In this document: positions 13,354-45,657 of the stretch, one piece after another
Layout of the letters: each line of letters opens with the position of its first letter
Numbering within the stretch: the stretch's first letter is position 1
Program-made: the position numbers and the translations under genes
Virus record (IMG/VR): IMGVR_UViG_3300028549_001457
Coordinates: 160,001-224,000 of that record
Reading direction: 5' to 3' (one strand)
DNA from: a virus
Lineage: Duplodnaviria; Caudoviricetes
Length of the DNA stretch: 64,000 nucleotides
Notes under the pieces: model-generated
What the model saw: the letters and a program-made list of their open reading frames with translations, nothing else
Database searches by the model: none
Told to the model about the DNA's origin: nothing

Positions 13354-13493
13354 AAGTCTTTCAGTAGCAACATTTGAGATACTTCGCCTGTAAAGCGGGA
13401 TGTCGTGAGTTCGAGTCTCACCAGGGGGCAACCTCTGTAGCTCAGTTGGATAGAGCGCCTAAACCTCTCGGATGGCCTTTCTCTGAAAGATTT
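13354..13493 (+). ncRNA. YrlA-like Y RNA 1 (permuted tRNA domain, acceptor capped by GCAA)
   Basis: outer stem gtctttcag/ctgaaagat, TAG, inner stem catttgag/ctcggatg, ATACTTC, then anticodon arm, T arm, acceptor, D arm. Confidence 0.75.
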
Positions 13494-13500
13494 CTTTTTA

Positions 13501-13652
13501 AACCTTGCAATAGCTAGACAAGCCTTACTTCGCCCGTTAAGCGCGTAAAGCGGTGGTTCGACTCCATCATCCGGCACCAGAACAACCCATGCCGGATTAG
13601 CCCAGTGGTAGAGGCACGTAAAATTCGGCTAGTCAATTTTCTTTGCAAGGTT
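13501..13652 (+). ncRNA. YrlA-like Y RNA 2 (permuted tRNA domain with internal ACCA)
   Basis: outer stem aaccttgcaa/ttgcaaggtt, TAG, gacaagcc/ggctagtc, TTACTTC; atccggc-ACCA-11 nt-gccggat. Confidence 0.75.
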
Positions 13653-13659
13653 CCAATAT

Positions 13660-13737
13660 GGAAGGTGAGCTAGTGTGGTCATTCAGCGAAGGACTGAAAA
13701 TCCTTAGAAATCGGTTCGATTCCGTTACCTTCCACCA
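13660..13737 (+). tRNA. tRNA-Phe(GAA)
   Basis: aagga-ct gaa aa-tcctt arm; ACCA end. Confidence 0.9.
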
Positions 13738-13884
13738 ATTTCCAGTAGTAAGAAGCAGGATACTTCGATTCAGCTCACGCTGAAGTTTCTTGGTTCGATT
13801 CCAAGATTCCCCGCCAAGTTTAATCTCTGGGGAATTGCCTAATGGTTAGGCGATCAAGCCCTTCTTTAAGTTTCTCTGGGAGTT
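13737..13884 (+). ncRNA. YrlA-like Y RNA 3 (permuted tRNA domain with internal GCCA)
   Basis: outer stem aatttccag/ctgggagtt, TAG, agaag..gg/cccttct, ATACTTC; attcccc-GCCA-12 nt-ggggaat. Confidence 0.75.
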
Positions 13885-13918
13885 TTATACGGTTTCTTCT
13901 TTCATAGAAGGAGCCACC

Positions 13919-14470
13919 ATGACACTCAAGCAAGTCGGTATCGCAGTAGGGGCCGTAATTATTTTAGCTGCCGCTGGGTATGGGATCTATAAGGGGAATA
14001 TAAATGCCCTCACTGACCAACAGCAGATTGAACTAGCCTTCAATAAACTCTTGGCTAACTCACCTTCTACGGTTAAAATTCTTGGTGCGGTAGATATCAC
14101 TAAGATATCTAATGAAAAGCTTAAGGGCTCTGATCTAGGTCAGACTGCCATTTATGCAGATGGGTCATTTACAATAAAAATAGATGTGGAAGATGTCAAA
14201 AGATGCTATGATAGGTTAGAACCAGTCCTAGCCCATGAAATTTTCCATGTATGGCAAGCAACTGTTAAGTCAACTCCAGAACAGTTCATTGAAATGGTTA
14301 ATCGTGAGAAAGCCACCACGGACTGGTCCCATAGGACGTTTGAGATTGAAGCTGTAGCATGGGAAAACGTAATACGAAAAGAACTTCTTGAAGCTAACCC
14401 TAAAGAATTCTCAGGGATGCCCGAGACTCGGGAACTGACAAATGCAAGATATAAAGCTTTGAAGAATTAA
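13919..14470 (+). CDS. putative zinc metallopeptidase with N-terminal membrane anchor
   Basis: LAHEIFHVWQ (HExxH) and downstream FEIEA. Confidence 0.6.
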   Translation: MTLKQVGIAVGAVIILAAAGYGIYKGNINALTDQQQIELAFNKLLANSPSTVKILGAVDITKISNEKLKGSDLGQTAIYADGSFTIKIDVEDVKRCYDRLEPVLAHEIFHVWQATVKSTPEQFIEMVNREKATTDWSHRTFEIEAVAWENVIRKELLEANPKEFSGMPETRELTNARYKALKN

Positions 14471-14524
14471 AATCATTCCCGCTTAGCTCAGTGGTTAAAG
14501 CGAATGACTGGTTTAAGAAACTAA

Positions 14525-14599
14525 GGACTGGTAGCTCAGAGGAAGAGCGCAACCCTGTTAAGGTTGATGTCGAGATATCGTAATTCTCCCAGTTCGCCA
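14525..14599 (+). tRNA. tRNA-Asn(GTT)
   Basis: caacc-ct gtt aa-ggttg arm; atypical T loop atcgtaa; GCCA end. Confidence 0.8.
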
Positions 14600-14661
14600 A
14601 TCATGACCATTCCTGGGACGCCTAGTGGTCTGGCAGTAAGTCCGAGAGTGGGAGCCAATCT

Positions 14662-14736
14662 TTTCTCAAGTAGCTAGGAGTAGCGTTACTTCGCTTTTGG
14701 TGCAAAAAACACGCGATCCACTTTTCTCTTGAGAAA
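14662..14736 (+). ncRNA. minimal Y-like RNA 4 (scaffold with a single short hairpin)
   Basis: tttctcaag/cttgagaaa, TAG, gga..gcg/cgc..tcc, TTACTTC, TTTTCT. Confidence 0.6.
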
Positions 14737-14786
14737 GTTTTTCTGTATCTTGTATGTCTCCCACTAAACTGGGAGTGGATTGAAAT

Positions 14787-14862
14787 GGGCCGGAAGATTT
14801 AATGGGAAATCGCTGCCCTTGCACGGCGGAGAATGTCGGTTCGATCCCGATGCGGTCCACCA
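14787..14862 (+). tRNA. tRNA-Ala(TGC)
   Basis: G3:U70; ctgcc-ct tgc ac-ggcgg arm; ACCA end. Confidence 0.85.
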
Positions 14863-14869
14863 ATTTTTA

Positions 14870-15204
14870 GGTAAACCTGGACATCGCTGGCTAACCACCA
14901 GAGGAAAGTCGGGACTCCACAGAGCAACAAGCCAGCTAACTACTGGGCAGGGCAACCTGACGGAAAGTGCAACAGAAAGCAAACCGCCGATGGCCCGAAA
15001 GGGATCAGGTAAGGGTGAAAGGGTGGAGTAAGAGCCCACCGCTGGACTGGTAACAGGACAGGCATGGTAAACCCCTTGTGGAGCAAGGCAAACAGAGGAT
15101 GATGACCCTGCTCGGGTAGTCTTCGGGTTGCTGCTAGAGGCCAACAGTGATGCTGGTCCCAGAGGAATGATGTCACACGACAGAATCCCGCTTATGGTTC
15201 ACCT
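14870..15204 (+). ncRNA. rnpB: RNase P RNA (type A-like)
   Basis: GAGGAAAGTCGGGA and ACAGAATCCCGCTTA form a compensated P4; GGAAAGTGCAACAGAAA, GGTAAACCCC and GAGCAAGGC conserved regions. Confidence 0.95.
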
Positions 15205-15286
15205 ATAATAAATTCGGGCTGGCCTCATGGAGAGGTCGGGGTAACGAGGGCATGCACTCCCTCCCCGCTCGGAAATTCAAAACAAT

Positions 15287-15381
15287 AGCGGGGTAGAGGA
15301 GCCTGGAGTCCTCATGAGTCTCATAAACTCGAAAAAGGGTCACAAACCCTGTCGCTGGTTCAAATCCAGCCCCCGCCTCCA
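15287..15381 (+). tRNA. tRNA-Met(CAT), initiator-like, with long variable arm (copy 2)
   Basis: identical to 13081 copy except positions 1 and 72 (A1:C72). Confidence 0.8.
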
Positions 15382-15414
15382 TTTTTTAAATCGGATGCTG
15401 AGCATCCCCATAAA

Positions 15415-15488
15415 CGGTGCGTATCTCAAAGGAAGAGTGCTGGTCTGTGATACCAGTTATGAGAGTTCGAGTCTCTCCGCACCTGCCA
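15415..15488 (+). tRNA. tRNA-His(GTG)
   Basis: ctggt-ct gtg at-accag arm; lacks the G-1:C73 pair. Confidence 0.7.
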
Positions 15489-15494
15489 ATCCAA

Positions 15495-15570
15495 GGGTCC
15501 TTAACTCAATGGCTAGAGTACTCGCCTCTTAAGCGATAGGTTCCGGGTTCAAATCCCGGAGGACCCACCA
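15495..15570 (+). tRNA. tRNA-Lys(CTT)
   Basis: cloverleaf; ACCA end. Confidence 0.9.
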
Positions 15571-15577
15571 ATCTTAT

Positions 15578-15654
15578 GCCAGCAAAGCCAACTCGGTGGA
15601 GGCGCAGGATTCATATCCCTGATAGGGCCAGTTCGAAACTGGCTGCTGGTACCA
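15578..15654 (+). tRNA. tRNA with CAT anticodon (elongator Met or Ile2)
   Basis: cagga-tt cat at-ccctg arm; ACCA end. Confidence 0.8.
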
Positions 15655-15661
15655 ATATGTC

Positions 15662-15690
15662 TGGATCTTTTACTGGAATCGAGCGTATCT
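15662..15690 (+). promoter_or_regulatory. ECF-like promoter TGGATC-N16-CGTATCT
   Basis: recurring motif. Confidence 0.6.
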
Positions 15691-15696
15691 AGTGGC

Positions 15697-16047
15697 ATGG
15701 AGCTTCAAATGATGACACCTATCCAACAGCAACGACAGCATGAGCGGCGAGAACGGATTCTAACCCTTATGAGGAGTATGGTTTTGGCTAGTGAAAACTC
15801 TAAGAGCCTTATGCGGCACGTTCCCATCCCTAAGGCTGACATTACAGAACTCTCTATTCATCTTCGCGGCTTTTTTAATGCTTTGGACGAGGATCTCGAT
15901 GAATCCGAAGCTCAGGCATCTTCAGCTTTGGCGGGGGATCTTCGAGAAGTTCTCGCCAAACATGGCTACTCAAGTGGCCCCACGGCTTCGAGTTCCCACC
16001 CTGGTTATGATGACTTCCGTAGAGAGGGTGGACGTTTTGGGGATTAG
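15697..16047 (+). CDS. hypothetical protein
   Basis: ORF directly after promoter motif. Confidence 0.55.
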   Translation: MELQMMTPIQQQRQHERRERILTLMRSMVLASENSKSLMRHVPIPKADITELSIHLRGFFNALDEDLDESEAQASSALAGDLREVLAKHGYSSGPTASSSHPGYDDFRREGGRFGD

Positions 16048-16078
16048 GTGCTAACATCTCCTTTTCCTGGAGGCCTAC

Positions 16079-16348
16079 ATGGTCACAGATGATGAGATGT
16101 ATGACACCCTACGAGCGTTGCTTAATACGGGATTTAACTCACCTGTAAGGATATCTAAGAAAGTTAGCCTCCCCCTAGATTTGGTGGAGGAAGCTCTTGA
16201 ACTGGCTTTGGATAGGGGACTGGTAGTATCCACCCCTGGCTTGAGGGACTTCATGCTCAATTCCTCTGGGGAGTTGATGATCCACAATGATTCCCTACGG
16301 AAAATCGTGGAGTTTGAATCTCAAGCCTTCAACCAGGATTCTTGGTAA
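16079..16348 (+). CDS. hypothetical protein, possible winged helix
   Basis: GGAGG RBS; ISKKVSLPLDLVEEALE. Confidence 0.55.
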   Translation: MVTDDEMYDTLRALLNTGFNSPVRISKKVSLPLDLVEEALELALDRGLVVSTPGLRDFMLNSSGELMIHNDSLRKIVEFESQAFNQDSW

Positions 16349-16351
16349 TAG

Positions 16352-16428
16352 CTGCACGTAGCCCAATTGGAAGAGGCACAAGGTTCAAATTCTTGTCAGT
16401 GTGGGTTCGACCCCCTCCGTGCGGACCA
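16352..16428 (+). tRNA. tRNA-Leu(CAA), short variable loop
   Basis: caagg-tt caa at-tcttg arm; ACCA end. Confidence 0.8.
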
Positions 16429-16433
16429 AAAAT

Positions 16434-16511
16434 GCCGATGTGATGAAACTGGCTTGACATCTCATACTCAAAATATGGGTCTTGGGGGTTCGAATCCCTC
16501 CATCGGCACCA
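16434..16511 (+). tRNA. tRNA-Leu(CAA), short variable loop
   Basis: tcata-ct caa aa-tatgg arm; ACCA end. Confidence 0.8.
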
Positions 16512-16516
16512 ATCTA

Positions 16517-16593
16517 GCCCCCATGGACAAATGGCAAAGTCGCTCGGTTCAGATCCGAGAGTTCTCCCAGTTCGAGTCTGGGTGGGGGTACCA
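16517..16593 (+). tRNA. tRNA-Leu(CAG), short variable loop
   Basis: ctcgg-tt cag at-ccgag arm; ACCA end. Confidence 0.8.
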
Positions 16594-16638
16594 AAAATTA
16601 GTTCGAATCTACTATTCTTAACTCGTAACTAAGACAAT

Positions 16639-16712
16639 TGGGATGTAGGCTAATGGCAAACCAGGAGGTTTTGATCCTCCCTTTCCCCGTTCGAGTCGGG
16701 GCATCCTAACCA
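16639..16712 (+). tRNA. tRNA-Gln(TTG)
   Basis: cloverleaf; ACCA end. Confidence 0.9.
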
Positions 16713-16721
16713 ATCTTTGAC

Positions 16722-16810
16722 AGGCGTGTGATGTATGGCTGCATAGGCGGTCTTATAAACCGCTAGCAGATTAGCTCCTTGTTCCAGTTCGACTCTGGAC
16801 ACGCCTACCA
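16722..16810 (+). tRNA. tRNA-Ile(TAT) with long variable arm
   Basis: gcggt-ct tat aa-accgc arm; ACCA end. Confidence 0.8.
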
Positions 16811-16842
16811 AATGTTAACGAAGTGTGTTATAATTTAATCAT

Positions 16843-16920
16843 CGGCCACTAGCGCAGTCTGGTTAGCGCACTAGCTTTGGGAGCTAGGGGTCCTCAGTTC
16901 GAATCTGAGGTGGCCGACCA
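16843..16920 (+). tRNA. tRNA-Pro(TGG)
   Basis: cloverleaf; ACCA end. Confidence 0.9.
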
Positions 16921-16972
16921 TTACATGATGTAAGGAAGACACACAGGGTATTTCCTTTATAAGGAGGCTTAC

Positions 16973-17530
16973 ATGCCTACGTGTCTTAATTGTGGGGTAT
17001 CATTTCCTAATAGAATTGTGATTGACGGTATGGATCGGGTTATTAATACTCGAAAGTATTGTTTAATCTGTTCTCCCTACAAGTGTCGTAATACCGTTAG
17101 GATACACCTTAAAAAAGTTCCAAAGTGTTCAATTTGTGGTGAGGAAAACCCATCCAGATTCTACGGTAAAAAGTTTACACGGTGTGGGAAGTGTCATAAT
17201 GATTACACGATGGCAAAAGCTAGAGAGAAAAGGTTATATGCTACTACAAAATTGGGTGGGAAATGTGCAGTCTGTGGGTTCAATTATTTTAATGAAGCAT
17301 TAGCAATTCATCACCTGGATCCTAGTCTTAAAGACGATAACTTTAAAAATATGTCTGGTTGGTGCTTTTCTAGAATAGATAAAGAGATTGAACACTGCAT
17401 TTTACTCTGCATGAATTGCCACACAGGGTATCATACGGGGCATATAATACTTCCAGACTATACTAACATTTCTGAAGGATTTAATGGTTGCGGAGGTTCA
17501 AATCCTCTCACCCCGACCAATCTTCACTAA
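16973..17530 (+). CDS. HNH endonuclease with Cys-rich N-terminus
   Basis: GGKCAVCG...IHHLDP...CILLCMNCHTGYH; 3' end overlaps a tRNA-Pro 3' fragment. Confidence 0.85.
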   Translation: MPTCLNCGVSFPNRIVIDGMDRVINTRKYCLICSPYKCRNTVRIHLKKVPKCSICGEENPSRFYGKKFTRCGKCHNDYTMAKAREKRLYATTKLGGKCAVCGFNYFNEALAIHHLDPSLKDDNFKNMSGWCFSRIDKEIEHCILLCMNCHTGYHTGHIILPDYTNISEGFNGCGGSNPLTPTNLH

Positions 17531-17570
17531 AGACTCTCCTTTAGTAAATGTCTTTAGTTGAGGTTTCAAA

Positions 17571-17786
17571 ATGGTTGCAAGAGCATTGAGTGTTGATTTC
17601 AGATACCCAAGAGTGGGTGCTAGACTTCTCGTTTATGGGTCTGGGTTTAATCCTGATCGTGTTGGGATCTACCAGGGGAATACGGATACTGGGGACTTAA
17701 TTCTGGACATGGATACTCGAAATATGTTGCCAGATGAGATGAAACTTTTCGTTCTTCCTAAGTATAGTCCCTTTAAGGTTCTTTAA
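17571..17786 (+). CDS. hypothetical protein
   Basis: 71 aa ORF with GAGG RBS. Confidence 0.5.
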   Translation: MVARALSVDFRYPRVGARLLVYGSGFNPDRVGIYQGNTDTGDLILDMDTRNMLPDEMKLFVLPKYSPFKVL

Positions 17787-17795
17787 TTCATTAAT

Positions 17796-17887
17796 GCGCG
17801 TGTGCCCAAATCTTGGCAAAGGGGCAGGACTGAGATTCCTGTGTGCCGAAAGGCCGACTGTGGGTTCGATCCCCATCACGCGCACCA
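17796..17887 (+). tRNA. tRNA-Leu(GAG)
   Basis: cagga-ct gag at-tcctg arm; long V arm; ACCA end. Confidence 0.9.
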
Positions 17888-17894
17888 ATACAAT

Positions 17895-17981: not shown

Positions 17982-17988
17982 ATACAAT

Positions 17989-18080: not shown

Positions 18081-18087
18081 ATTCAAT

Positions 18088-18166
18088 ATCCCCGTAGCTC
18101 AGCCCGGATTAGAGCGCAAGTTTGCGAAACTTGAGGTCGCTGGTTCAAACCCAGTCGGGGATACCA
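18088..18166 (+). tRNA. tRNA-Arg(GCG)
   Basis: caagt-tt gcg aa-acttg arm; ACCA end. Confidence 0.85.
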
Positions 18167-18172
18167 ATCAAT

Positions 18173-18247
18173 GCCGACCTAGCTTAACGGAAGAGCTTTA
18201 GTCTTCGAAACTAACAAGTCCCGGTTCAAATCCGGGGGTCGGTACCA
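18173..18247 (+). tRNA. tRNA-Arg(TCG)
   Basis: ttagt-ct tcg aa-actaa arm; ACCA end. Confidence 0.85.
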
Positions 18248-18812: not shown

Positions 18813-18887
18813 GCGGGTGTAACTCAGTGGTAGAGTGCGACCTTGCCAAGGTCGAAGTCGAGGGTTCAAATCCCTTCACCCGCTCCA
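18813..18887 (+). tRNA. tRNA-Gly(GCC)
   Basis: canonical cloverleaf; TCCA end. Confidence 0.95.
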
Positions 18888-18916
18888 ATTTATTCCCTCT
18901 TTTATTAGAGGTGTAG

Positions 18917-20257
18917 ATGCTTAAGGTTTCCAGGATTCTTTCAACTGACGGTGCATCCAAAGAATCTCTTCTTGAGACTGGCCATACGCTACTTCGTGAA
19001 GATTACGATAGACTCATAAGTGAAATTAAACCTCTTCCCCATGAGGTTTTCTATGTTGGTGATATTGAGATTATTCGTAATCCAACGGGTGCTGACTATA
19101 GAGGTATGGCAAATGAAATCAGATCTGAGATTGGAAATGACTTCTCGGGGGATCCGCTGTTAAGATATACCCTTGATAGTTTCGGCAATCGTTGGATCTG
19201 GAAAGCAACAGAGGGTCTTCACAACCAGATCGAGCCTTTAATCTCTCAAAGGGAGCGTGTAGAGGTCGGTCAGAGTCTAGGGATTCCCTCCCATTCTAGT
19301 TTAATTAGGGATGCCGTGAGAGCCAAGAAGCAGATTCCTTTAGATGTGCAGGCTCAGTATCCAAATTACGCTGAATACTTCCCCAGGACTGCTATGCTTA
19401 AGGTTTCCAAGCTCCTAGAGGACCCCACAGAGTCTCCTGCGTTCCAAGCGTGGTTCGCTGGCTCCAAGGTTGTAGATGCCGCTGGGAAGCCTGCCAGGGT
19501 CTTTCACGGCACTGACAAAAAGTTCAATTCTTTTAATCTCAATAAAACCACGCAGGGTATTATTTGGTTTACCTCTGACAAGGCCTCAGTAGAGGCTGGT
19601 GACGTAGGCGCACAGGGTCGTGGGGTCATTATGGAACTCTACGCCTGCATTAAGAATCCCGCTGGATGGAAAGAATACGATCAGTATGGTTTGGGGGAAT
19701 TAAAAGCTAGGGGTTTTGATGGTGCAATTCTTCCCGAGAAGGATGGCTCCTTTACTGGGTTTGTCTTCCACCCACATCAGCTTAAGTCTGTAGCCAATAA
19801 AGGGAAGTGGGATCCAAAAAGTCATTACTTGACTGCTTCATATATCCCTAGAACGCTCACGAATTTTAAATCAGATGAGACAAACGGTGCAGCCTGTGAC
19901 ATATTCAAAGGCTTTTATCCAAAGTATGAGCTTGGGAAGGCTATTGCGTTAACGCGAAGTGAGTTATCAAAGCGTGGTTTTAATCTTACACCATTAGAAG
20001 ATGTTAAACCACTTTTGGACTCTCTTACACCAGCGCCAGTTAAGCCTGTTGTGGCGCAGCAGCCTCAGTTATTTTCTAATGAAGAGATGCGATACTCATC
20101 TGAGATCGATCCAAATACGCCTTACTATGTAGTAGATATTAAGACGGGCGAGATTGTTGGGAAATACATCTATAAGAATCGCAATAGAGCCCGTGCTTTT
20201 AAGGATCGTAAAGATCAAGAGTATGGCGCTGTGCGGTATGTTTGTAAGCTAGGTTAA
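18917..20257 (+). CDS. MLKVS-tagged multidomain protein with ART-like polyvalent-protein domain
   Basis: starts MLKVSRIL; internal MLKVSKLL; AFQAWFAGSKVVDAAGKPARVFHGT motif. Confidence 0.6.
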   Translation: MLKVSRILSTDGASKESLLETGHTLLREDYDRLISEIKPLPHEVFYVGDIEIIRNPTGADYRGMANEIRSEIGNDFSGDPLLRYTLDSFGNRWIWKATEGLHNQIEPLISQRERVEVGQSLGIPSHSSLIRDAVRAKKQIPLDVQAQYPNYAEYFPRTAMLKVSKLLEDPTESPAFQAWFAGSKVVDAAGKPARVFHGTDKKFNSFNLNKTTQGIIWFTSDKASVEAGDVGAQGRGVIMELYACIKNPAGWKEYDQYGLGELKARGFDGAILPEKDGSFTGFVFHPHQLKSVANKGKWDPKSHYLTASYIPRTLTNFKSDETNGAACDIFKGFYPKYELGKAIALTRSELSKRGFNLTPLEDVKPLLDSLTPAPVKPVVAQQPQLFSNEEMRYSSEIDPNTPYYVVDIKTGEIVGKYIYKNRNRARAFKDRKDQEYGAVRYVCKLG

Positions 20258-20444: not shown

Positions 20445-20520
20445 GCGCCCGTAGCTCAATTGGCAGAGCATTCGGCTTTTAACCGAAGGGTTACCAGTTC
20501 AAGTCTGGTCGGGCGCACCA
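20445..20520 (+). tRNA. tRNA-Lys(TTT)
   Basis: canonical cloverleaf. Confidence 0.95.
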
Positions 20521-20523
20521 AAT

Positions 20524-20601
20524 CCTCGCATAGCTCAGTCTGGTATGAGCGAACGCCTGATAAGCGTTAGGTCAGTGGTTCAAATCCACTTGCGAGGACC
20601 A
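20524..20601 (+). tRNA. tRNA-Ile(GAT)
   Basis: canonical cloverleaf. Confidence 0.95.
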
Positions 20602-20978: not shown

Positions 20979-21196
20979 ATGATCTCCATAAAGAGTTTAG
21001 TTGATAAAGGTAAAAAGGTCCGTTTTTCTTGGTATCGGGATGGGGATATGTGGTATGTCACAGATTGTGGGTTTGAGTTCCCAGTCCCCTTTCCGAGGTA
21101 GGGACCGCCCTGCTTAAGTCTGAAGACAAAGCCATTCTTTTTATGAGATATATCCGCAAGCATGTGGATCTTTTAGAATCGGCTAAGACTCACTAA
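20979..21196 (+). pseudogene. small phage gene interrupted by a one-base frameshift
   Basis: MISIKSLV...FPVPF hits TAG; the -1 frame continues SEVGTALLKSEDKAILFMRYIRKH to TAA. Confidence 0.5.
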
Positions 21197-29095: not shown

Positions 29096-29756
29096 ATGGA
29101 TATTATTGTAGAAATACGTGCCGCAGAAGGCGGCGATGATGCTGTTTTATTGGTTCGAGACCAATTAAAGGCCTATCTTCGGAGGGCTGAGCGGAGGGGA
29201 CTTTGAGACCGAGATTCTAGAGGAAACTTCGGGTTTTGTGTCCTTCTTGGTAAAAGAAGATCCATCCCAAGAATTCTTTAATGAAGCTGGTGGTCAACGG
29301 TGGCAACATATTAGTCCAACTGACAAAAATAAGCGCGTTCATACTTCAACTGTTACCGTTGCTGTTTTAGCATTACAGCATTCCTCAGTCTACCTCAATC
29401 CCAACGATGTGGAGATTCAAACCACCCGAGGATCAGGCCCTGGCGGTCAAAACAGGAATAAAGTAGAATCCTGTGTCTTGGCTATACATAGGCCCACAGG
29501 ACTCTCTGTAAGAATTGACGGGCGCTCCCAACTTCATAATAAGAAGGTGGCGTTAGAAGTCCTTGCAACTCGTTTAGAGGCCGCTCATGCTGCTTCCCAG
29601 CATCAAGCCTTAAGTAAGCACAGACGAGATCAAGTCGGTTCGGGCCAGCGTGGGGATAAGGTCAAGACTTATCGAGTGCGTGATAACACTGTAACGGATC
29701 ACCGGACGGGGCAGAAATGGAACCTGGATAAGTGGTTAAATGGCTTCTGGGACTAA
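29096..29756 (+). CDS. class I peptide chain release factor, 219 aa via programmed +1 frameshift at CTT TGA (29201-29206)
   Basis: EIRAAEGGDDA upstream of the stop; +1 frame gives HISPTDKNKRVHTS, GSGPGGQNRNKVES, VKTY...VTDHR; SD-like GGAGGGGA directly before CTT TGA. Confidence 0.85.
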
Positions 29757-31034: not shown

Positions 31035-31229
31035 AACGCTATATGTGTTTGCGGTGTAGACGCGATAGATTTAGCACTCCCGGCCCACACCGTTGTGGGG
31101 GGATGTTTATTAAACATTTTCGTAAAAGGGTTTGGGGAGACGTTTTCCCCAATGGATTTTTTAAGAGAATCTCTCAGCCCTATTGGGGTGCTTAGATTTC
31201 TTTTTAGGGTAGAAGAGGATATTATACTC

Positions 31230-32375
31230 ATGCTAAAGGTTTCACGATTGTTAAGAGCTACAACCCCGGAGATATCCTCTAAGTTTCCTCCTCAATTAAT
31301 TACCTTACTTCGTAAGCTGAATTCTTTTGGTGAGTTTTATCTCGTTGGGGGCTGCATCCGTGATGCGCTTCTTGGTAGAACGCCTAAAGACTTTGATGTT
31401 ATGGTTGTGGCTCCCTCCCCGCAAGAGCTTGAAAAGATCCTCCCCGTGAAGCAAGTCGGAGCCGCCTTTCCTGTATATCTATATGATACTGAGGACCCAG
31501 AGTTAGGCATTATTGAATTCGCCTATGCCCGTAAAGAGACAAAAACAGGGATTGGGTATAAGGGTTTTGATTTTGAGGTCGTTTCAGATGTTAAAGAGGA
31601 CCTAGCTAGACGCGATCTAACTATAAATGCTCTCGCCTGGAACCCTACTGCAGGACTTGTATCTTTTGATGATAGGGCTATGGATGATGTGCAGACTAAT
31701 ACTCTTAGGCATGTCACGGAAGCTTTTGCGGAAGACCCTCTTCGTGTATTGAGAGCAGCTAGATTTTCAGCACAACTCCCAGGTGATTGGAAAGTGGACC
31801 CCGAGACTATCAAATTAATGAATAGTCTCCAGGGTGAGTTGCCTTCTTTAGCATTGGATAGGATTCGAATTGAGCTAGAAAAATCTCTCAGGGCAGCAAA
31901 ACCAGGGAACTTCTTTCAGGTACTACATCAAGCTGATTGCATGAGTTATTGGTTCCCAGAGTTGGAGTCAAATCTCCCAGCGTTAATTAATTTGGTAAAT
32001 AAGTCTGCAAAATCAGTTAGCTTAATTGAGATGTATTGCCTATTAGCCCAGACAATGCAATCTAATGGTGACGTAAAGACTTTTTGTAAACGGCTTTCTC
32101 TTGCATGGGATCGGGAAATGGCGCTGTGGCGTAATATCCACGCCTGCTCTTTTACCTCCCCTAAAGATTTCTTGATGGTGTATAAAGGTGGGCGTCAAGG
32201 AAGGCTCCCATTTGATAGTATTTACAGACTTTTAGAGATTAATGGGGATACTTCAAGCCAAACCTCCCTTAAGAAAGCGGTGGCTGCTCTTCAAAATCTA
32301 AAGCTCCAAGAGGTCCCACCGTCCGAAATTCCTGCTTTGATGCTTAAAACAGTTTCTTCAGCGTTAGGGATGTGA
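31230..32375 (+). CDS. cca: CCA-adding tRNA nucleotidyltransferase, MLKVS-tagged
   Basis: YLVGGCIRDALLG..PKDFD, FAYARKE, EDLARRDLTINA, EDPLRVLRAARF, ERI-like DRIRIELEK. Confidence 0.9.
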   Translation: MLKVSRLLRATTPEISSKFPPQLITLLRKLNSFGEFYLVGGCIRDALLGRTPKDFDVMVVAPSPQELEKILPVKQVGAAFPVYLYDTEDPELGIIEFAYARKETKTGIGYKGFDFEVVSDVKEDLARRDLTINALAWNPTAGLVSFDDRAMDDVQTNTLRHVTEAFAEDPLRVLRAARFSAQLPGDWKVDPETIKLMNSLQGELPSLALDRIRIELEKSLRAAKPGNFFQVLHQADCMSYWFPELESNLPALINLVNKSAKSVSLIEMYCLLAQTMQSNGDVKTFCKRLSLAWDREMALWRNIHACSFTSPKDFLMVYKGGRQGRLPFDSIYRLLEINGDTSSQTSLKKAVAALQNLKLQEVPPSEIPALMLKTVSSALGM

Positions 32376-32772: not shown

Positions 32773-32834
32773 GTGGATTTAGCACCCGTCTTCTAAACGG
32801 GTTTACGTCAGTTCGAATCTGACCGGGACCACCA
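32759..32834 (+). tRNA. tRNA-Arg(TCT)
   Basis: cccgt-ct tct aa-acggg arm; overlaps hemerythrin 3' end. Confidence 0.9.
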
Positions 32835-32836
32835 GT

Positions 32837-32910
32837 GCCGATATAGCTCAATGGTAGAGTTCTGGTTTCGTAAACCAGAGATATGGGTTCAATTCCCTTT
32901 ATCGGCTCCA
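32837..32910 (+). tRNA. tRNA-Thr(CGT)
   Basis: ctggt-tt cgt aa-accag arm; TCCA end. Confidence 0.85.
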
Positions 32911-38029: not shown

Positions 38030-38331
38030 GCGCTCATGGCGGAATCGGTAGACGCCTTGGACTTCACGTAAGTATTACATGTAGAGCACTTAGTAGGAAA
38101 CTGCTGATGTGAATCCCATCAAATTCGGTGAATACCCCAAGTGGACAACGCCGAGCCAAGCCTGGAGACAGGAAGGTGTAGAGACTAGACGGTGGGGGCC
38201 TAAGGATACTAAATATCTATGGTCAAGGCATAGTCCAGCGCACAACAGGAAACTGGCCATAGCAATATGGAGTGTGATGAAAATCCAATGCCCGTAAGGG
38301 CGTCCCGGTTCGAGTCCGGGTGGGCGCACCA
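38030..38331 (+). tRNA. tRNA-Leu(TAA) split by a group I intron
   Basis: exons 38030-38064 and 38280-38331 rejoin as ttgga-ct taa aa-tccaa; long V arm; ACCA end. Confidence 0.9.
38065..38279 (+). mobile_element. group I self-splicing intron (215 nt, no ORF)
   Basis: P AAATTCGGTGAA, Q AACGCCGAGCCAAG, R GTAGAGACTAGACGG, S AAGGCATAGTCC; 5' exon ends in T, intron ends in G. Confidence 0.9.
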
Positions 38332-38673: not shown

Positions 38674-39216
38674 ATGGGACACTCAAAAAGATTTCAGAAC
38701 AGAAACACGGTTTTAGCTTTATCGTGTCATTTCATCCCAATGGCTGAAATTTCACGCAGAAAAGCAATCAAGGCCATCGTCACTCGTAAGGCTGACATCA
38801 TCACTAATCCTAAGACGCTGGAGACTTCTTCTTGGATTGAGCCTGGACAACCTATTAAGATGATTATCTATAAGATGGTTTCCAAGTCTCCCGGAGAGCC
38901 CCGTTTGCACTCAGGCAACAAGGGCCTAAAGGCGATTATTCGTCGTGACGGTCATAGGTGTTGCTATTGTGGGGCTAAGCTAAAGGGTACCAACTGCACC
39001 GTGGACCACATTGTCCCACGAAGTAAGGGCGGTCAAACTAACTGGAAAAACCTCGTGGCTTGTTGTTTCCGATGCAACCAGATGAAGGGCAGCAAGCTTC
39101 TGGAAGAAAGCGGTATGACCTTACTCCGTAGGCCTACCACCCCCACCATGGTTCTCATGGAGCGCTTCCATAAGTTGGTTGATTTTGATATGTTTGAAAA
39201 AACATACGCAGACTGA
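38674..39216 (+). CDS. HNH endonuclease (McrA-like); start probably 38739
   Basis: IRRDGHRCCYCG...TVDHIVPRSKGGQTNWKNLVACCFRCNQMKG. Confidence 0.9.
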   Translation: MGHSKRFQNRNTVLALSCHFIPMAEISRRKAIKAIVTRKADIITNPKTLETSSWIEPGQPIKMIIYKMVSKSPGEPRLHSGNKGLKAIIRRDGHRCCYCGAKLKGTNCTVDHIVPRSKGGQTNWKNLVACCFRCNQMKGSKLLEESGMTLLRRPTTPTMVLMERFHKLVDFDMFEKTYAD

Positions 39217-39234
39217 TTTTACGGCACATTTTTC

Positions 39235-39263
39235 TGAACCTTTTTGAAATTTGTGCCGTATCT
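39235..39263 (+). promoter_or_regulatory. ECF-like promoter TGAACC-N16-CGTATCT
   Basis: recurring motif upstream of a long noncoding tract. Confidence 0.6.
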
Positions 39264-39331
39264 TAAACTAGTCCCCTGAGGGGGCGTTGAATCCTTGAAA
39301 ATTTGGCAACATATTTAAGTAAACTAACTAT

Positions 39332-39660
39332 GGCCTGACTAGGCACTTCGGTGCCGTAGCGCTCCAGCGTTGGTCGGGCCTCCAATCAAAACCCCGTCCT
39401 AGTAGCTTCCTAGGCTGTAATTCAAACGGCCATGAGGGGCAGTAACCCTTCGTGCAGTAAAGAGTCTCCTGGAGGCATTAACCTCTAAGGTCTGAATAGA
39501 ACGCGGCTTTTAGCTGTGAATCCAGTGAGCCAAACTGGTAGAATGAGTAGTTGCGACACTCCGGGGAATCATCAAACCCAAGGGGCAGTAAGTCAAAATG
39601 GGTTACTTCGAGAGCCTTCACAAGCTCACCATATGCAAAGACACCCACTGACGATTCCCT
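39332..39660 (+). ncRNA. large unassigned structured RNA candidate
   Basis: ORF-free; ggcctgact/ggtcgggcc and ggcac-ttcg-gtgcc stems; repeated GGGGCAGTAA. Confidence 0.45.
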
Positions 39661-39844
39661 CCCCTTGGTTTTTATAACCTAATTAACTTAGGAGGCTTAT
39701 ATGCCTGACTCAACTGGTTACTGGGGCGATGACGATGACAACAAGGTTCTTGATGCCATCGATGACGAATTTGATCGCTACGAGCGAGAAAATCCTGACG
39801 AAGATTAATTAGTCTGTATTGTTTTTATATATGATGGAGCAAGC

Positions 39845-40293: not shown

Positions 40294-40669
40294 GGGGGTG
40301 CCATGGTTTTGACAGGTTGTTTATTTGAAGAGTAGTGCAGGTAGGGGTGGGCTGGCCCCTTTAATAAGCCCAAAAGCTATAACTGCCGAAGACACAATGC
40401 TTCTTCAGGCTGCGTAAGCAGCAACCTCTTAGTGAGCGTTTGGTAACTAAGTTGTATGTTCTTCAGAGGGTGGATTCGTCCTACTGATGGGGGATAACAG
40501 ACTGGACTCCGGTGACGCTTTCCTAGCCTGAGTTAAGAGCGTAGAGAGCAAGTCCTTGAATAGGGTTAGCCCAACTCCCTATAGAGGTCACGAAAAATGG
40601 GCTAAACCTGTGAATGAATTACCTTTAGAGGCTTCTTGGACATCGGTTCGATTCCGATCACCTCCACCA
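40294..40669 (+). ncRNA. ssrA: tmRNA, tag peptide (A)AEDTMLLQAA
   Basis: G3:U70 acceptor, TTGAC D-like loop, ATAACT-GCC resume site (40385-40417), T arm and ACCA. Confidence 0.95.
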
Positions 40670-41056: not shown

Positions 41057-41071
41057 AGTTTAAGGACACAA

Positions 41072-41509
41072 ATGAAAACCATCATAGCAGGGTCCAGGGA
41101 AATTGAAGATTACTCTCTAGTAGAAGCCGCTGTCGCTCAATCTGGTTTTACCATTACAGAAGTAGTTTCTGGAACCGCTAGGGGTGTAGATAGATTAGGT
41201 GAAGAGTGGGCTGCGCGACACGGGGTTCCAGTCAAGCGTTTCCCAGCTAACTGGGATGCTTACAAGAAAGAGGCTGGTTTTATTCGTAATGAAGAAATGG
41301 GTCTTTATGCGGAAGCTCTTGTAGCGGTTACAAATGGTTCCAGAGGAACCCAGCATATGATCGACTATGCAACAAAACGTGGGCTAAAGGTTTTTATTTT
41401 TGAAGATCCCACACCGTCATTAATCGCTGCTTTTAACGCAAGTCCAGAAGCGAAAAAATCGTTGCTAAATGCTAACATACACATCCGAAGATCGTCTGAC
41501 TTTGAATGA
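41072..41509 (+). CDS. YspA/DUF2493-like SLOG family protein
   Basis: IIAGSR, VSGTARGVD, AGFIRNEEM, SRGTQHMI. Confidence 0.8.
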   Translation: MKTIIAGSREIEDYSLVEAAVAQSGFTITEVVSGTARGVDRLGEEWAARHGVPVKRFPANWDAYKKEAGFIRNEEMGLYAEALVAVTNGSRGTQHMIDYATKRGLKVFIFEDPTPSLIAAFNASPEAKKSLLNANIHIRRSSDFE

Positions 41510-41788
41510 GGCTGTCATGAACGCACCCACTGAAAGTCCTCCTGCTTAGGTCAAATTGACCAAGTTGGAGGTGCCAAATGGCGCTAAGTGCAAAGCACAG
41601 TAAGTCTGTGCAGAAGATGTCCACCGAGCAGTTGCAGTCGGTGGTCCAGGCTGGGACCCTTCTTTCCGCAGCGGCGAAGGCCGAGTTGCAGAAGCGGGGG
41701 GTGTCAGTCAGGAAAAAGTAGGTCTGGATCGGTAAGCCGGGGGCCGAGTAATTCCCCGGCAGTTTTACGGATGGAGGATTAATTTCCT

Positions 41789-41998
41789 ATGAAGTGCGTA
41801 CAGAATACCGTTACAAAGGAAATCCGGCGCGTGAGTGAAGATCGCGCCCTTGAATTGACCCAGAAGGATTGGGCCTTTGTTTCCAAGGAAACTTGGAAGA
41901 AGGGGGAAGGGACTTCCTGGGTGAAGAACACCACCCCTGCTAATCCGATGTCGGAGAGCAAGAAGCATCGAATTTCCAAAAAGAATGCTAGGGGGTAA
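41789..41998 (+). CDS. small basic hypothetical protein
   Basis: GGAGG RBS; MKCVQNT. Confidence 0.5.
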   Translation: MKCVQNTVTKEIRRVSEDRALELTQKDWAFVSKETWKKGEGTSWVKNTTPANPMSESKKHRISKKNARG

Positions 41999-42011
41999 TA
42001 GTTACTAGGGC

Positions 42012-42040
42012 TGGATTTATCGGGAATTTCTACCGTATCT
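42012..42040 (+). promoter_or_regulatory. ECF-like promoter TGGATT-N16-CGTATCT
   Basis: recurring motif. Confidence 0.6.
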
Positions 42041-42227
42041 TTCATTGAGGAGACTCGCATGAAAAACGGTAGTCATTCACGCCATACTTATCCCTACGAT
42101 AAGTCGCTTCCTGTTGAACTGGCGCATCAAACAGCAGGGCATCCAGCGCAAAAGCAGACCATGAAAAAGCTGCAAAAGCGTAAGGCAAGGCAGCATACTA
42201 AATTGGTCTGTAAGGAAGTTGAGTAAT

Positions 42228-42301
42228 GCGGGTGTAACTCAGTGGTAGAGTGCTAGCTTCCAAGCTGGAAGTCGAGGGTTCAAATCCCTTCACCCGCTCC
42301 A
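42228..42301 (+). tRNA. tRNA-Gly body with 6 nt anticodon loop (ttccaa)
   Basis: identical to Gly(GCC) at 18813 outside the anticodon arm; ctagc-ttccaa-gctgg. Confidence 0.7.
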
Positions 42302-42322
42302 TAACCTCTTTCACGGTGCAAG

Positions 42323-42586
42323 ATGTCTACGTGTTCCTACAATTATGTTTGTTTCTCTTGCCGCACACACTATCGTCGGAAGGCGTGGGGGGGTGGGACT
42401 GCAATTTGTGGGATATGCCAGAAGCCCTGTGTTTGTGTGGGTCATAAGTGGCGTGTGCCACCTAAGACAGACCTGAAAGCTTGGGATATCATGCTTGAAA
42501 AGTTCAGGCATTGCCTTCCAGCCGAGATCCTAGTAGGTAAATTAGAGCAAAACACACCCGGTACGCCTCTGGTTCGTAAGAATTAA
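42323..42586 (+). CDS. zinc-ribbon hypothetical protein
   Basis: VCFSCR...CGICQKPC...KWRVPPK. Confidence 0.6.
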   Translation: MSTCSYNYVCFSCRTHYRRKAWGGGTAICGICQKPCVCVGHKWRVPPKTDLKAWDIMLEKFRHCLPAEILVGKLEQNTPGTPLVRKN

Positions 42587-42731
42587 GCGCACCATCTGAC
42601 CTGGATTTACAGGCCCCCTCGGGATGCGGGTGATAGGCTGGGACAACCGGAAAGGGGTAGGTAGGCAAGTGGCTTAAGACGCTTGTTTATTGCGGCCCTC
42701 CAATGGAGTAGATAACGTAGGGCTCCTCAAT

Positions 42732-42818
42732 GCGAATGTGGCGTAACTGGTAGCCGCCCAGGTCTTAGAAGCCTGTGTCCGAAAGGGCGTGTCGGTTCGA
42801 TTCCGACCATTCGCACCA
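42732..42818 (+). tRNA. tRNA-Leu(TAG)
   Basis: caggt-ct tag aa-gcctg arm; long V arm; ACCA end. Confidence 0.9.
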
Positions 42819-42856
42819 ATCTTGTTTAGGAGATATCCTTTTAGGTAGAGGATATC

Positions 42857-43159
42857 ATGATTCACACTACTTCCCTAACAATCCATCATGATGCAGCGGG
42901 TCTGGTAAAACCTGTGCAGTCAAAATATGTTCTCATTCAGGTTATGCTGAAAGGTGCCAATATAGACCTGACGGGCTTGATCGAGCGTGAGAATGGTGGT
43001 TATGTAGGTAAAGTTAGCGTTATGGGTAAGACTATTGAATCTGAGTGGGAAGTTAGTCTTAAGTCAGCTCATAGCGGTCTTCAAAAAAGTGCTCAAAAAT
43101 TCATTGATAAACTGGGTTTGCGTGAGAAGCAGCACGAACATGAGTTTGCTCACGCTTAA
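42857..43159 (+). CDS. hypothetical protein
   Basis: AGAGG RBS. Confidence 0.55.
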   Translation: MIHTTSLTIHHDAAGLVKPVQSKYVLIQVMLKGANIDLTGLIERENGGYVGKVSVMGKTIESEWEVSLKSAHSGLQKSAQKFIDKLGLREKQHEHEFAHA

Positions 43160-43160
43160 A

Positions 43161-43301
43161 TAAAACACACGGGAATGCGTAGCTACGATGCGGTAATACC
43201 CCGTTGATCTGCATAACCTGTATCAGGGAATCTCACCTCAAGCGTGACTGATCTGTGTGCCTCGGGAGAGGCCAACATGAGGAAGGTGGGAGTGTGTTTT
43301 T
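43161..43301 (+). ncRNA. unassigned structured RNA candidate
   Basis: closing stem aaaacacac/gtgtgtttt with several internal hairpins. Confidence 0.4.
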
Positions 43302-43557
43302 ATTAGTTGTATCTGTAGCATGGGAGGCCTTATGGCTAAGGTTGATTATAGACTGGCATTGGAAAATGCTCATAAATCTCTCGCCCAGGATGAGTTTTTT
43401 AGGAGACTGAGCAAGATGGGTCCCGAGGAGCAGTCCGAGTTTCTGAAGAAATTGTCGGTTCCCGATGACGCAGTTATTGAAGTTGGAGAAGAATCCTAAT
43501 TTTTTCTTTTAATGAAATTAATTCCTGGTATCTCTCTTAGGTAAGATCCTTGACAAT

Positions 43558-43773
43558 TTGTCCAGTAGCGAGTATCCGGTTACTTCGTTAATATGACTCA
43601 GTGTTATATTTACCTTGGATGTAAGGTCCCGAAGGAACCACCTGAAGGTAGGGGGGTTAGCGTAAAAACTAACCTTGAGATACATGAGTAACTTCCCTCA
43701 TGGCATCTCTTATCGGGTGGGCATCCCACAGATGCTTAAAAAGTGAACCCCGTATACGTTAATCTCTGGACAG
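43558..43773 (+). ncRNA. Y-like RNA 5 with large multi-hairpin payload
   Basis: tgtccag/ctggaca, TAG, gtatccgg/ccgtatac, TTACTTC; about 170 nt insert. Confidence 0.65.
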
Positions 43774-43779
43774 CACTTT

Positions 43780-43837
43780 CACGGTAGCAAGTAAAGAGTT
43801 CCTTCGGCTATGAAACTCTATACAACAAACCTCCGTG
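43780..43837 (+). ncRNA. minimal Y-like RNA 6
   Basis: cacgg/ccgtg, TAG, gta..gagtt/aactc..tac, TTCCTTC variant. Confidence 0.5.
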
Positions 43838-43845
43838 TTCTTTCC

Positions 43846-43876
43846 GGCCCCTCCTACTCCGAGGGGCTTTTTCTTT
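43846..43876 (+). terminator. intrinsic terminator after Y-like RNAs 5 and 6
   Basis: gcccctc/gaggggc stem plus T run. Confidence 0.75.
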
Positions 43877-44086
43877 AGGTGAGGAACTGTCATGTACATA
43901 ACATCTACACAGTATTCAACTTATTTGGATTCTTACGAAAAGCAGGGCCACCTAATACAAGGCAACCCTTTGGGGAGACTCTTCTGTTCTGATTTTAATA
44001 TATCAGATCCTGACCTCTTTCGAGAAAACGATAATAAGGTGGCCGCAGCCTTAATCAGAAAAAGATATGTAGCCTAAAAAATTTTC

Positions 44087-44115
44087 TGGACTTTTGAATA
44101 ACTTTCTGCGTATTA
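44087..44115 (+). promoter_or_regulatory. ECF-like promoter TGGACT-N16-CGTATTA of the Ro60 gene
   Basis: recurring motif variant. Confidence 0.55.
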
Positions 44116-44190
44116 TATCTATGGCGACCAAATAGATGGTCCCCGCATCTCCCTGGCGCACTAGGGTAGCACATAGAAGGACGGTGCCCC

Positions 44191-45657
44191 ATGGCTCGTT
44201 TCGCTAAGACGGAAGTCTCTACTGTTAACACTCCTACTACTGTTAACTTGGCTGGAGGGGAAGCTTTTGCTATGTCCCCTAAGCTTGAGTTTGCTTCGGC
44301 GCTGTTGACTTGCTTCACCACGGATACTTATTACAAGTCCGGTGAGGGTCAGGTTAGTCGCATTGCCGATTTGTCCAAGACTGTTGACCCTTTGTTTGCA
44401 GCAAAGGCAGCTATCTTTACTCGTAAGAAGAATGGCCTCCGGTCTGTAAGCCACATTGTGGCCGGGGAACTCTCTCAGCGTGTGGATATCAAGGGCTTGG
44501 AGTGGACTCGTAAGTTCTACGAGCGGGTTGTCAATCGTCCTGATGACATCACCGAGACTCTTGCATATATCAAGTCCACGAGTGGTCAGAACCTCCGTAA
44601 GTTGAGCAACGCTATGAAGAAGGGTTTCGGCGCGGCTCTCGGTAAGTTTGATTCTTATCAGCTTGCCAAGTATCGTGGAGAGGGTAAGGATCTGAATCTG
44701 TATGATGCGGTCAATTTGCTGCACCCTAAGGCTACTGCTGCATTGACCGAGCTGATGACCGGGACTCTTAAGCCAGCCGAAACTTGGGAGACCAAGCTTA
44801 CTCAGGCTGGTCAGAAGGCATCTTCGGATACCGAGAAGGCCGAAATGAAGGGTCAGGCATGGCGTGAGCTTTTGACTGCTAACAAGCTGGGCTTCATGGC
44901 TTGCATCCGCAATCTTCGCAACATTGCGGAACAGGCTCCTGATGTAATGCCTTTGGCTCTGGAGTTCATTACGGACCCTCATCAGGTTAAGAAGTCCCTG
45001 ATGTTCCCCTTCCAGATTTATACTGCTACCGAAGCAATTCGTGGCACTAAGGCTGATACCCGTGAGGTTAAGCTGGCTCTGGAAAAGGCGATGGAGTTGA
45101 GCCTTGTCAATGTTCCCAAGTTTTCAGGTAAGACCCTGATTGCTGTTGATACCAGTGGATCTATGGCTGGTCGCCCCGTTCAGATTGCTGCGTTGTTTGC
45201 GGCTGTGCTGTTTAAGTCTAACGATGCAGACGTTCTGCGTTTTGCTTCGGGCGCTACCTACCTGGACCTCCACCCAGCGGATAGTCTTACCACGCTCACC
45301 GAGAAGATTCACCGCGCTTCCGGGGGTGGGACCGATTTCCACAGTATCTTCGAAACTGCTAATAAGGTCTATGACCGAATTATCATCCTTTCGGACATGC
45401 AAGCTTGGGTAACTCGTCAGGTTAGTTCTTATTGCGCTGGGACCCCTCATGCCGCACATAAGGCTTACAAGCAGAAATTTGGAGCGGATCCTCGGATCTT
45501 CTCTTTCGATCTGACGGGTCAGGGGACCCTCCAGTTCCCCGAGAGCAAGGTTTTCGCTTTGGCGGGTTTTAGTGACGCCGTTTTGAAGACCATGCAGAAC
45601 CTCGAAATGGACCCTAATGCCCTCGTGCATGAAATCGAGTCTATTAGCTTGACCTGA
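44191..45657 (+). CDS. rsr: Ro60/Rsr RNA-binding protein (TROVE plus vWA domains)
   Basis: NLAGGEAF, DPLFAAKAAIFTR...LRSVSH, YQLAKY, TWET, IRNLRN, PF; DTSGSM, GGGTDF, IILSDMQ. Confidence 0.9.
   Translation: MARFAKTEVSTVNTPTTVNLAGGEAFAMSPKLEFASALLTCFTTDTYYKSGEGQVSRIADLSKTVDPLFAAKAAIFTRKKNGLRSVSHIVAGELSQRVDIKGLEWTRKFYERVVNRPDDITETLAYIKSTSGQNLRKLSNAMKKGFGAALGKFDSYQLAKYRGEGKDLNLYDAVNLLHPKATAALTELMTGTLKPAETWETKLTQAGQKASSDTEKAEMKGQAWRELLTANKLGFMACIRNLRNIAEQAPDVMPLALEFITDPHQVKKSLMFPFQIYTATEAIRGTKADTREVKLALEKAMELSLVNVPKFSGKTLIAVDTSGSMAGRPVQIAALFAAVLFKSNDADVLRFASGATYLDLHPADSLTTLTEKIHRASGGGTDFHSIFETANKVYDRIIILSDMQAWVTRQVSSYCAGTPHAAHKAYKQKFGADPRIFSFDLTGQGTLQFPESKVFALAGFSDAVLKTMQNLEMDPNALVHEIESISLT

Follow-up and report, generated by a model that had tools for sequence, protein, structure and literature searches.

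Seven Y-like RNAs with a common scaffold accompany the Ro60 gene of a phage

The stretch of DNA analysed here (the window, 64,000 nucleotides) comprises bases 160001-224000 of a 278,785-bp IMG/VR virus record, IMGVR_UViG_3300028549_001457, judged to be 95% complete. It encodes a Ro60 (Rsr) protein together with seven RNAs, Y1 to Y7, which are built on one scaffold and all lie on the same strand as the Ro60 gene. Judging from sequence and gene order, we consider it likely that the seven are Y RNAs of the phage's own Ro60, to which they are predicted to bind. The set extends the known Ro60-Y RNA system and is not a new kind of system.

The initial annotation of this DNA had pointed to a TROVE gene and to at least six scattered loci sharing a scaffold. 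The TROVE gene proves to be a full-length Ro60 with TROVE and Ro60-type vWA domains; its open reading frame (ORF) is complete, with 100% coverage in an alignment to hundreds of homologues. The DxSxS motif, the usual MIDAS signature of a vWA domain, is invariant (D320, S322, S324). Among solved proteins, Thermus phage phiLo's Ro60 comes closest (E 7e-20), at an identity of only ~26%. The closest cellular homologues, with 61-68% identity, all come from Holophaga/Holophagaceae assemblies, which suggests an acidobacterial host or an acidobacterial donor of the Ro60 gene.

All six RNA loci are where the initial annotation had placed them and fold as claimed in RNAfold, with the payloads it had assigned (three permuted tRNA-like, two short hairpins, one domain of ~170 nt). 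A looser scan uncovered a seventh member, Y7. Y5 and Y6 lie within 0.65 kb of Ro60, at 354-633 nt from the TROVE gene as described, and Y1-Y3 lie ~30 kb upstream. The RNAs, the Ro60 gene and its adjoining hairpins are:

13354..13493, + strand: Y1, YrlA-type; outer stem AAGUCUUUCAG/CUGAAAGAUUU; starts 2 nt after tRNA-Asp
13501..13652, + strand: Y2, YrlA-type; outer stem AACCUUGCAA/UUGCAAGGUU; ends 7 nt before tRNA-Phe
13737..13884, + strand: Y3, YrlA-type; outer stem (AA)UUUCCAG/CUGGGAG(UU); its first base is the last A of tRNA-Phe
14661..14737, + strand: Y4, minimal (scaffold plus a short loop or hairpin); between tRNA-Asn and tRNA-Ala/RNase P RNA
39578..39668, + strand: Y7, small hairpin payload; outer stem CCAAGGGG/CCCCUUGG, bulged C, AG:CU pairs
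43558..43773, + strand: Y5, multi-hairpin payload of ~165 nt; 418-633 nt upstream of Ro60; fold z -3.88
43780..43837, + strand: Y6, minimal; 5-bp outer stem; UUCCUUCG motif
43846..43868, + strand: terminator-like hairpin with a U run, closing the Y5-Y6 unit
44191..45657, + strand: Ro60 (Rsr) gene, 488 aa
45675..45702, + strand: terminator-like hairpin 3' of Ro60

The scaffold and its payloads

RNAfold folds each of the six initial loci with its ends paired, and Y7 has paired ends too. The outer stem measures 5-11 bp and its sequence is unlike in every copy. Above it sits one bulged nucleotide, U in six copies and C in Y7, followed by an invariant A-U and an invariant G-C pair, in which 5' AG lies opposite 3' CU. 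The "TAG" that had been placed between the two stems is this bulged U plus the A and G paired to the conserved 3' CU. Next comes an asymmetric internal loop, with 3-4 nt on the 5' side (C/U-N-A) and a U/C-rich 3' strand; of the six copies scored, five have 6-7 nt on that strand and Y4 has 2 nt. An inner stem of ~7-9 bp follows. The motif WUACUUCG begins 14-15 nt past the bulged U; its version in Y6 is UUCCUUCG, and in Y7 the motif UUACUUCG stands 17 nt after the AG. In each RNA a variable second module is mounted above this conserved stem. The bulged, end-paired stem is the likely Ro60-binding handle.

We made searches with descriptors of this scaffold. A strict one (7-bp outer stem, TAG, motif and CT) returned exactly Y1-Y5 from the whole 278,785-bp genome. 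Requiring stems of at least 7 bp gave 6 matches on the + strand and 0 on the - strand; 40 shuffles, with both strands counted, gave a mean of 0.8 and a maximum of 3. A very loose descriptor (5-bp stem, any bulge) gave 34 matches against ~22 in shuffled sequence and is not evidence when taken alone. A TACTTCG site at 47978 was considered as an eighth member and rejected, being part of a response-regulator gene and lacking a proper 3' partner.

The payloads fall into three classes in the window and into at least five among the relatives described below. In Y1-Y3 the order is V hairpin, T-arm, acceptor hairpin and D-arm, with conserved T and D loops. The acceptor hairpin of Y1 has a 4-nt loop and no CCA. 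In Y2 and Y3 the acceptor stem has seven pairs; after its 3' strand comes A-CCA (Y2) or G-CCA (Y3), and then an 11-nt loop. An N-CCA at this position occurs in 9 of 37 YrlA-type members, Y2 and Y3 included, where ~2 would be expected by chance. Against Y1 the Rfam YrlA model (RF02553) reaches 43.6 bits (13397-13462, model positions 23-87 only), and the aligned elements run T-arm, acceptor hairpin, D-arm. The payload that the initial annotation called a circularly permuted tRNA is thus the known YrlA tRNA-like domain.

Could Y1-Y3 be circularly permuted tRNA genes that mature to decoding tRNAs? The 3' half of the tRNA body does precede the 5' half, and Y2 and Y3 do encode N-CCA. Against this, none of the three has an anticodon loop, and the place of the anticodon arm is taken by an open-ended bulged stem of 25-30 bp. 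Furthermore, a tetraloop closes the acceptor stem of Y1, and ARAGORN reports no tRNA at the sites of Y1-Y3. We regard such a maturation as extremely improbable.

The other four RNAs, Y4-Y7, have no tRNA-like part, and even at permissive thresholds nothing in Rfam matches any of them or the Y5 payload. Y5 has positional homologues in two related phages (L002:9672-9851 and L005:3937-4153); in a three-way alignment these retain the scaffold and one inner helix and differ elsewhere. Y7 lies downstream of an HNH gene, as does its positional counterpart L002:5097-5166. The ~330-nt non-coding stretch between the HNH gene and Y7 (39217-39577) holds scaffold-like fragments (GGGGCAGUAACCCUUCG); at 39255-39580 there is no Rfam match and the fold is not significant (z -1.56).

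Covariation and linkage to Ro60 genes

We drew on metagenomes, viral contigs and genomes for the sequence surrounding Ro60 homologues. A single-protein query of the viral contigs returned no Ro60 relatives, and an alignment query recovered them; the Ro60 region used as a DNA query against the phage collection gave no match. Some 90 further loci, from phages and from bacteria of several phyla, have this scaffold next to a Ro60 gene. Its copies share the strand of that gene, and most are no more than ~1.5 kb away. A simple descriptor run over 1.48 Mb of such DNA gave 156 matches on the strand that carries Ro60, against 10 on the complementary one.

We aligned 37 tRNA-like members with MAFFT and ran RNAalifold on the alignment without any model. 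RNAalifold recovered the outer and inner stems, the A-U and G-C pairs between them, and the three tRNA-like elements (T-arm, acceptor hairpin and D-arm). Double compensatory changes occur at 29 of the 32 pairs, and the A-U and G-C pairs are invariant in all 37 sequences. The initial annotation had argued, from this one genome, that stem sequences differ and pairing is kept; across the relatives, compensatory changes are seen in every stem.

The same alignment was used to build a covariance model, R1. Searching 1.34 Mb of Ro60-flanking DNA with R1 yielded 165 matches at E<=1e-5, all 165 on the Ro60 strand. Among 149 distinct sequences, in an alignment fitted to the model, 94.7% of cells are paired, compared with 61.8% in column shuffles; sliding the partners by 1-3 columns drops pairing to 43-56%, and changes on both sides are found in 31 of 31 pairs. 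The RNAalifold result is the cleaner evidence of covariation, because the larger alignment was model-fitted.

Within the window, R1 scores Y1, Y2 and Y3, all in its training set, at 107, 100 and 75.5 bits. Among RNAs outside the training set it finds Y4 at 48 bits (E 5e-10) and Y7 at 30.8 bits (E 1e-5), whereas Y6 scores 24.6 bits, with E 4e-4 over the window and 3e-5 locally. Its alignments of Y7 and Y6 run end to end. Because of the 165-nt payload of Y5, the model misses the true 3' strand of this RNA, which was recovered by descriptor and folding only. No scaffold member was found by R1 outside the window in the 279-kb genome. Three further R1 matches (32787-32870, 20457-20592 and 18088-18239) were rejected as junctions of adjacent tRNAs, composed of the T-arm of one and the D-arm of the next. 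In a related phage, L011, the candidates at 18819-18957 and 21004-21136 were likewise rejected as junctions of neighbouring tRNAs.

The five RNAs other than Y5 and Y6 are 4.5-30 kb distant from Ro60, and four of these are interleaved with tRNA genes, in head-to-tail orientation and spaced by 1-8 nt. Gaps of 0-8 nt separate Y1-Y3 from tRNA-Asp and tRNA-Phe. L011 carries seven such RNAs, two beside Ro60 and five among tRNA genes, again just after tRNA-Asp; in that phage RtcB follows Ro60. Holophagaceae chromosomes have 3-5 tandem Y RNAs directly upstream of Ro60, within arrays of 20-35 tRNA genes, and Rhodothermales and Chthoniobacter loci have 4-6 Y RNAs. From these loci and L011 it follows that multiplicity and placement in tRNA arrays are traits of this Ro60 clade and not a peculiarity of the phage. 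The Holophagaceae layout resembles the phage module and may represent a mobile unit or a prophage remnant. In Holophagaceae and related assemblies (L007, L008, L010, L066) the tRNA arrays around Ro60 sometimes also contain RtcB and an HNH gene.

RNAs packed 1-8 nt from tRNA genes might also be decayed tRNA genes, or elements with a processing or structural role in the polycistronic tRNA transcripts, and have no function of their own; the weak spurious matches of R1 to tandem-tRNA junctions are in keeping with this. Y5, Y6 and Y7, however, lie outside the tRNA array, and compensatory pairing and conserved unpaired motifs persist over a wide evolutionary distance. Nor would a pseudogene retain intact T and D loops and the succession of T-arm, acceptor hairpin and D-arm. 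We consider this explanation very unlikely.

The RNAs might also be tRNA mimics that act without Ro60, as decoys or competitive inhibitors of host anticodon nucleases or as ligands of some other protein, with the stem serving as a stabiliser or a processing mark. Y1-Y4 do lie in a tRNA array 30 kb from Ro60. The phage has a large toolkit of tRNAs, tmRNA and RNA ligase, of a kind linked to tRNA-targeting conflicts, and published work has suggested that the YrlA tRNA-like domain may serve as a decoy (PMC7790460). Yet what all seven RNAs have in common is the handle and not the tRNA-like part, which four of the seven lack, and the handle stands beside Ro60 genes, on the Ro60 strand, across phyla. 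A tRNA-like domain acting as a decoy would, in addition, be compatible with Ro60 binding, so the two are not exclusive. Mimicry independent of Ro60 seems to us unlikely, and we continue with the reading of the seven as Y RNAs of the phage Ro60.

Among the bacterial relatives we also observed a second class, in which the tRNA body on the handle is attached by its acceptor end and has its parts in normal order, namely D-arm, anticodon-like arm and T-arm (examples: L007:9604-9774; L010:9650-9779; L066:2483-2610). Here the UUCG of the motif is the acceptor 5' strand. ARAGORN and Rfam label these RNAs as tRNAs (e.g. 'tRNA-Arg ccg' and 'tRNA-Phe gaa'), and they are probably mis-annotated in public genomes. 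A further class has a T-arm only and bears a weak resemblance to Deinococcus Yrn1.

Known Y RNA systems and a proposed mechanism

The initial annotation could not place a dispersed set of RNAs with interchangeable payloads. It can be placed: Y RNAs are known from published work to be modular, with an effector module joined to a Ro-binding stem, to number several per genome and to occur in phages (PMC4201824; bioRxiv 10.1101/312249), with copies in 22 phages and more than one per species (PMC4201824). Because these features are already described, the proposal of one protein with several RNA adaptors corresponds to the established Y RNA model, which in the present case would have more members than reported.

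Like the bacterial YrlA RNAs of Salmonella, M. smegmatis and mycobacteriophages (PMC4201824; bioRxiv 10.1101/312249), Y1-Y3 have an end-paired stem and a tRNA-like module in the same order. The phage motif UUAC/AUAC takes the place of the YUAY with which the V loop of YrlA begins, and, as in YrlA loci, short non-tRNA partner RNAs are present in the same locus. The encoded CCA and likely RNase P cleavage of Y2 and Y3 match M. smegmatis YrlA, which is cut by RNase P and receives CCA (PMC4201824). In contrast to YrlA, the phage handle has N-AG-Y-R-A opposite UUUU-CU in place of GNCGAAN0-1G; AG-Y-R-A replaces this motif in 119 of 150 family members. Unlike YrlA/YrlB systems, the phage has seven RNAs instead of two, and one of them carries a 165-nt payload that is not tRNA-like. 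Bacterial YrlA has been defined by a position within 4 kb of Ro60 on the same strand; Y1-Y3 are on the same strand but ~30 kb upstream.

Thermus phage phiLo offers the nearest arrangement in a phage, with a phage Ro60 and phage Y-like RNAs (Yrl1/Yrl2) upstream (PMC12135203; PDB 9KOP, 9L5Y). Its Ro60 binds these two RNAs, and complexes with host PNPase were shown in vitro (PMC12135203). The phiLo RNAs differ in being two, with a CGAA motif, and no tRNA-like modules or tRNA-array placement have been reported for them. In the Deinococcus radiodurans Rsr-Yrn1-PNPase complex (RYPER) a Y RNA is likewise modelled as tether or gate of Ro60, but the phage has no Yrn1-type member and does not encode PNPase. 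The layout of the handle recurs in animal Y RNAs (hY1-hY5, Xenopus Y3), which have a lower helix, a single bulged pyrimidine, 2-3 pairs, an internal loop and an upper helix (compare PMC4201824). No sequence homology to them can be demonstrated, and the routes of transcription and processing differ. Animals have two to four Y RNA paralogues with different loops.

Several observations weigh against assigning the seven RNAs to Ro60. The Rsr-binding motif GNCGAAN0-1G is present in 0 of 7 RNAs in the window and in 3 of 150 family members. At Rfam gathering thresholds no Y RNA family is found anywhere in the window; the YrlA threshold (69 bits) is reached neither there nor in the bacterial relatives, with scores of 36-44 bits overall, and at E<=10 the YrlA model does not match Y2 or Y3. 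The distance of 4.5-30 kb for five RNAs exceeds the 4-kb neighbourhood that defines bacterial YrlA. Y6 is the weakest member, with an outer stem of just 5 bp, and fitting the 149 sequences to R1 favours pairing. Lastly, RtcB and the RNase PH/PNPase core were not found in the phage genome, so that no effector is phage-encoded.

What we infer about binding, processing, effectors and purpose starts from the published model (bioRxiv 10.1101/312249; PMC4201824), by which the handle would dock on Ro60 and the second module would tether the ring to an effector or gate its cavity. With PNPase, RNase PH and RtcB all missing from the phage, its effectors would be host enzymes, for which host PNPase is the precedent with a phage Ro60 (PMC12135203). 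The four array RNAs would be co-transcribed with the tRNAs. Host PNPase is the known Ro60 effector in Deinococcus, Salmonella and Thermus phage phiLo. Enzymes of tRNA processing, possibly including the phage RNase P, would cut the RNA ends. Because N-CCA is encoded after the acceptor 3' strand, we propose that RNase P may open Y2 and Y3 to give two-piece RNAs with a free CCA end, as in M. smegmatis YrlA. The phage RNase P RNA is a candidate processor both of the array and of these CCA-bearing acceptor loops. During infection the system would probably serve to survey, degrade or repair structured RNAs, tRNA in particular, and a role against tRNA-cleaving defence systems is conceivable.

A more elaborate scheme would make the system a programmable tRNA-surveillance hub. 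One Ro60 ring would be served by seven adaptors, produced and trimmed along with the phage tRNAs, to some extent by the phage RNase P, and specific through their payloads for different clients or effectors (host PNPase, RNA ligase, the CCA-adding enzyme, damaged tRNAs). Y2 and Y3, once opened in the acceptor loop, would act as CCA-exposed sensors or decoys for host defences that cleave tRNA, and the module of Ro60, Y RNAs and tRNA array would be mobile between Holophagaceae-like bacteria and jumbo phages. Taken as a whole, this scheme is doubtful.

Our literature search found no published description of seven Y RNAs per genome, although the highest published number per genome was not established. 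No paper linking tRNA arrays with Ro60 was found, nor a description of Y RNAs interleaved with tRNA genes, of the large Y5 payload, or of the handle consensus, N-AG-Y-R-A opposite UUUU-CU and then UACUUCG, with GNCGAAN0-1G absent in 147 of 150 members. Because the consensus differs from GNCGAA and scores fall below the Rfam threshold, current annotation misses members of this family or labels some of them tRNAs. The family numbers ~165 members in phages and several bacterial phyla.

In bacteria and phages, just two or three Y RNAs per organism have been studied. Seven natural handle variants with three kinds of payload and a single Ro60 make a panel for the contacts of the handle and for what the payloads recruit. 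The recurrent placement of Ro60 and Y RNAs in bacterial and phage tRNA arrays points to tRNA metabolism as their main field, and this link bears on phage counter-measures to tRNA-cleaving defences.

Genome setting

Microbial-mat metagenomes contain identical DNA; the data sets listed with it are DNA assemblies, one of which may be the source, and no RNA data set is among them. The window holds 44 tRNA genes, and the toolkit of the phage includes an RNase P RNA, a CCA-adding enzyme and RNA ligases:

14868..15209, + strand: RNase P RNA, class A, full-length, 268.5 bits; 130 nt downstream of Y4, where the first tRNA block ends
31095..32375, + strand: CCA-adding-type nucleotidyltransferase with a PolyA_pol head and RNA-binding domains
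59838-60299 of the window: RNA ligase

A 183-aa ORF at 13919-14470, between Y3 and the next tRNAs, has no Pfam match and carries a HEIFH (HExxH) motif; judging from this motif, it may encode a small metalloprotease. An ORF at 18917-20257, in the middle of the tRNA array, has an ART-PolyVal ADP-ribosyltransferase domain. The site 42228-42301 is a good tRNA by its Rfam score (62 bits), and ARAGORN reports a two-base anticodon ('cc') there; this tRNA may have an unusual anticodon loop.

A protein with an RF-1 domain (29238-29756) lacks most of the PCRF domain and is perhaps ArfB-like. A tmRNA with the tag AEDTMLLQAA lies at 40294-40669. Together with the tRNAs, these two look like a ribosome-rescue kit of the phage. 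A group I intron match at 38066-38259 (51.2 bits against a threshold of 50) is followed by the HNH endonuclease ORF at 38674-39216. On the 3' side of Ro60, at 45762-48089, lie genes for a YfiR/HmsC-like protein, a CHASE8 histidine kinase and a response regulator, and the kinase-regulator pair after Ro60 is syntenic in the related phages L002 and L011.

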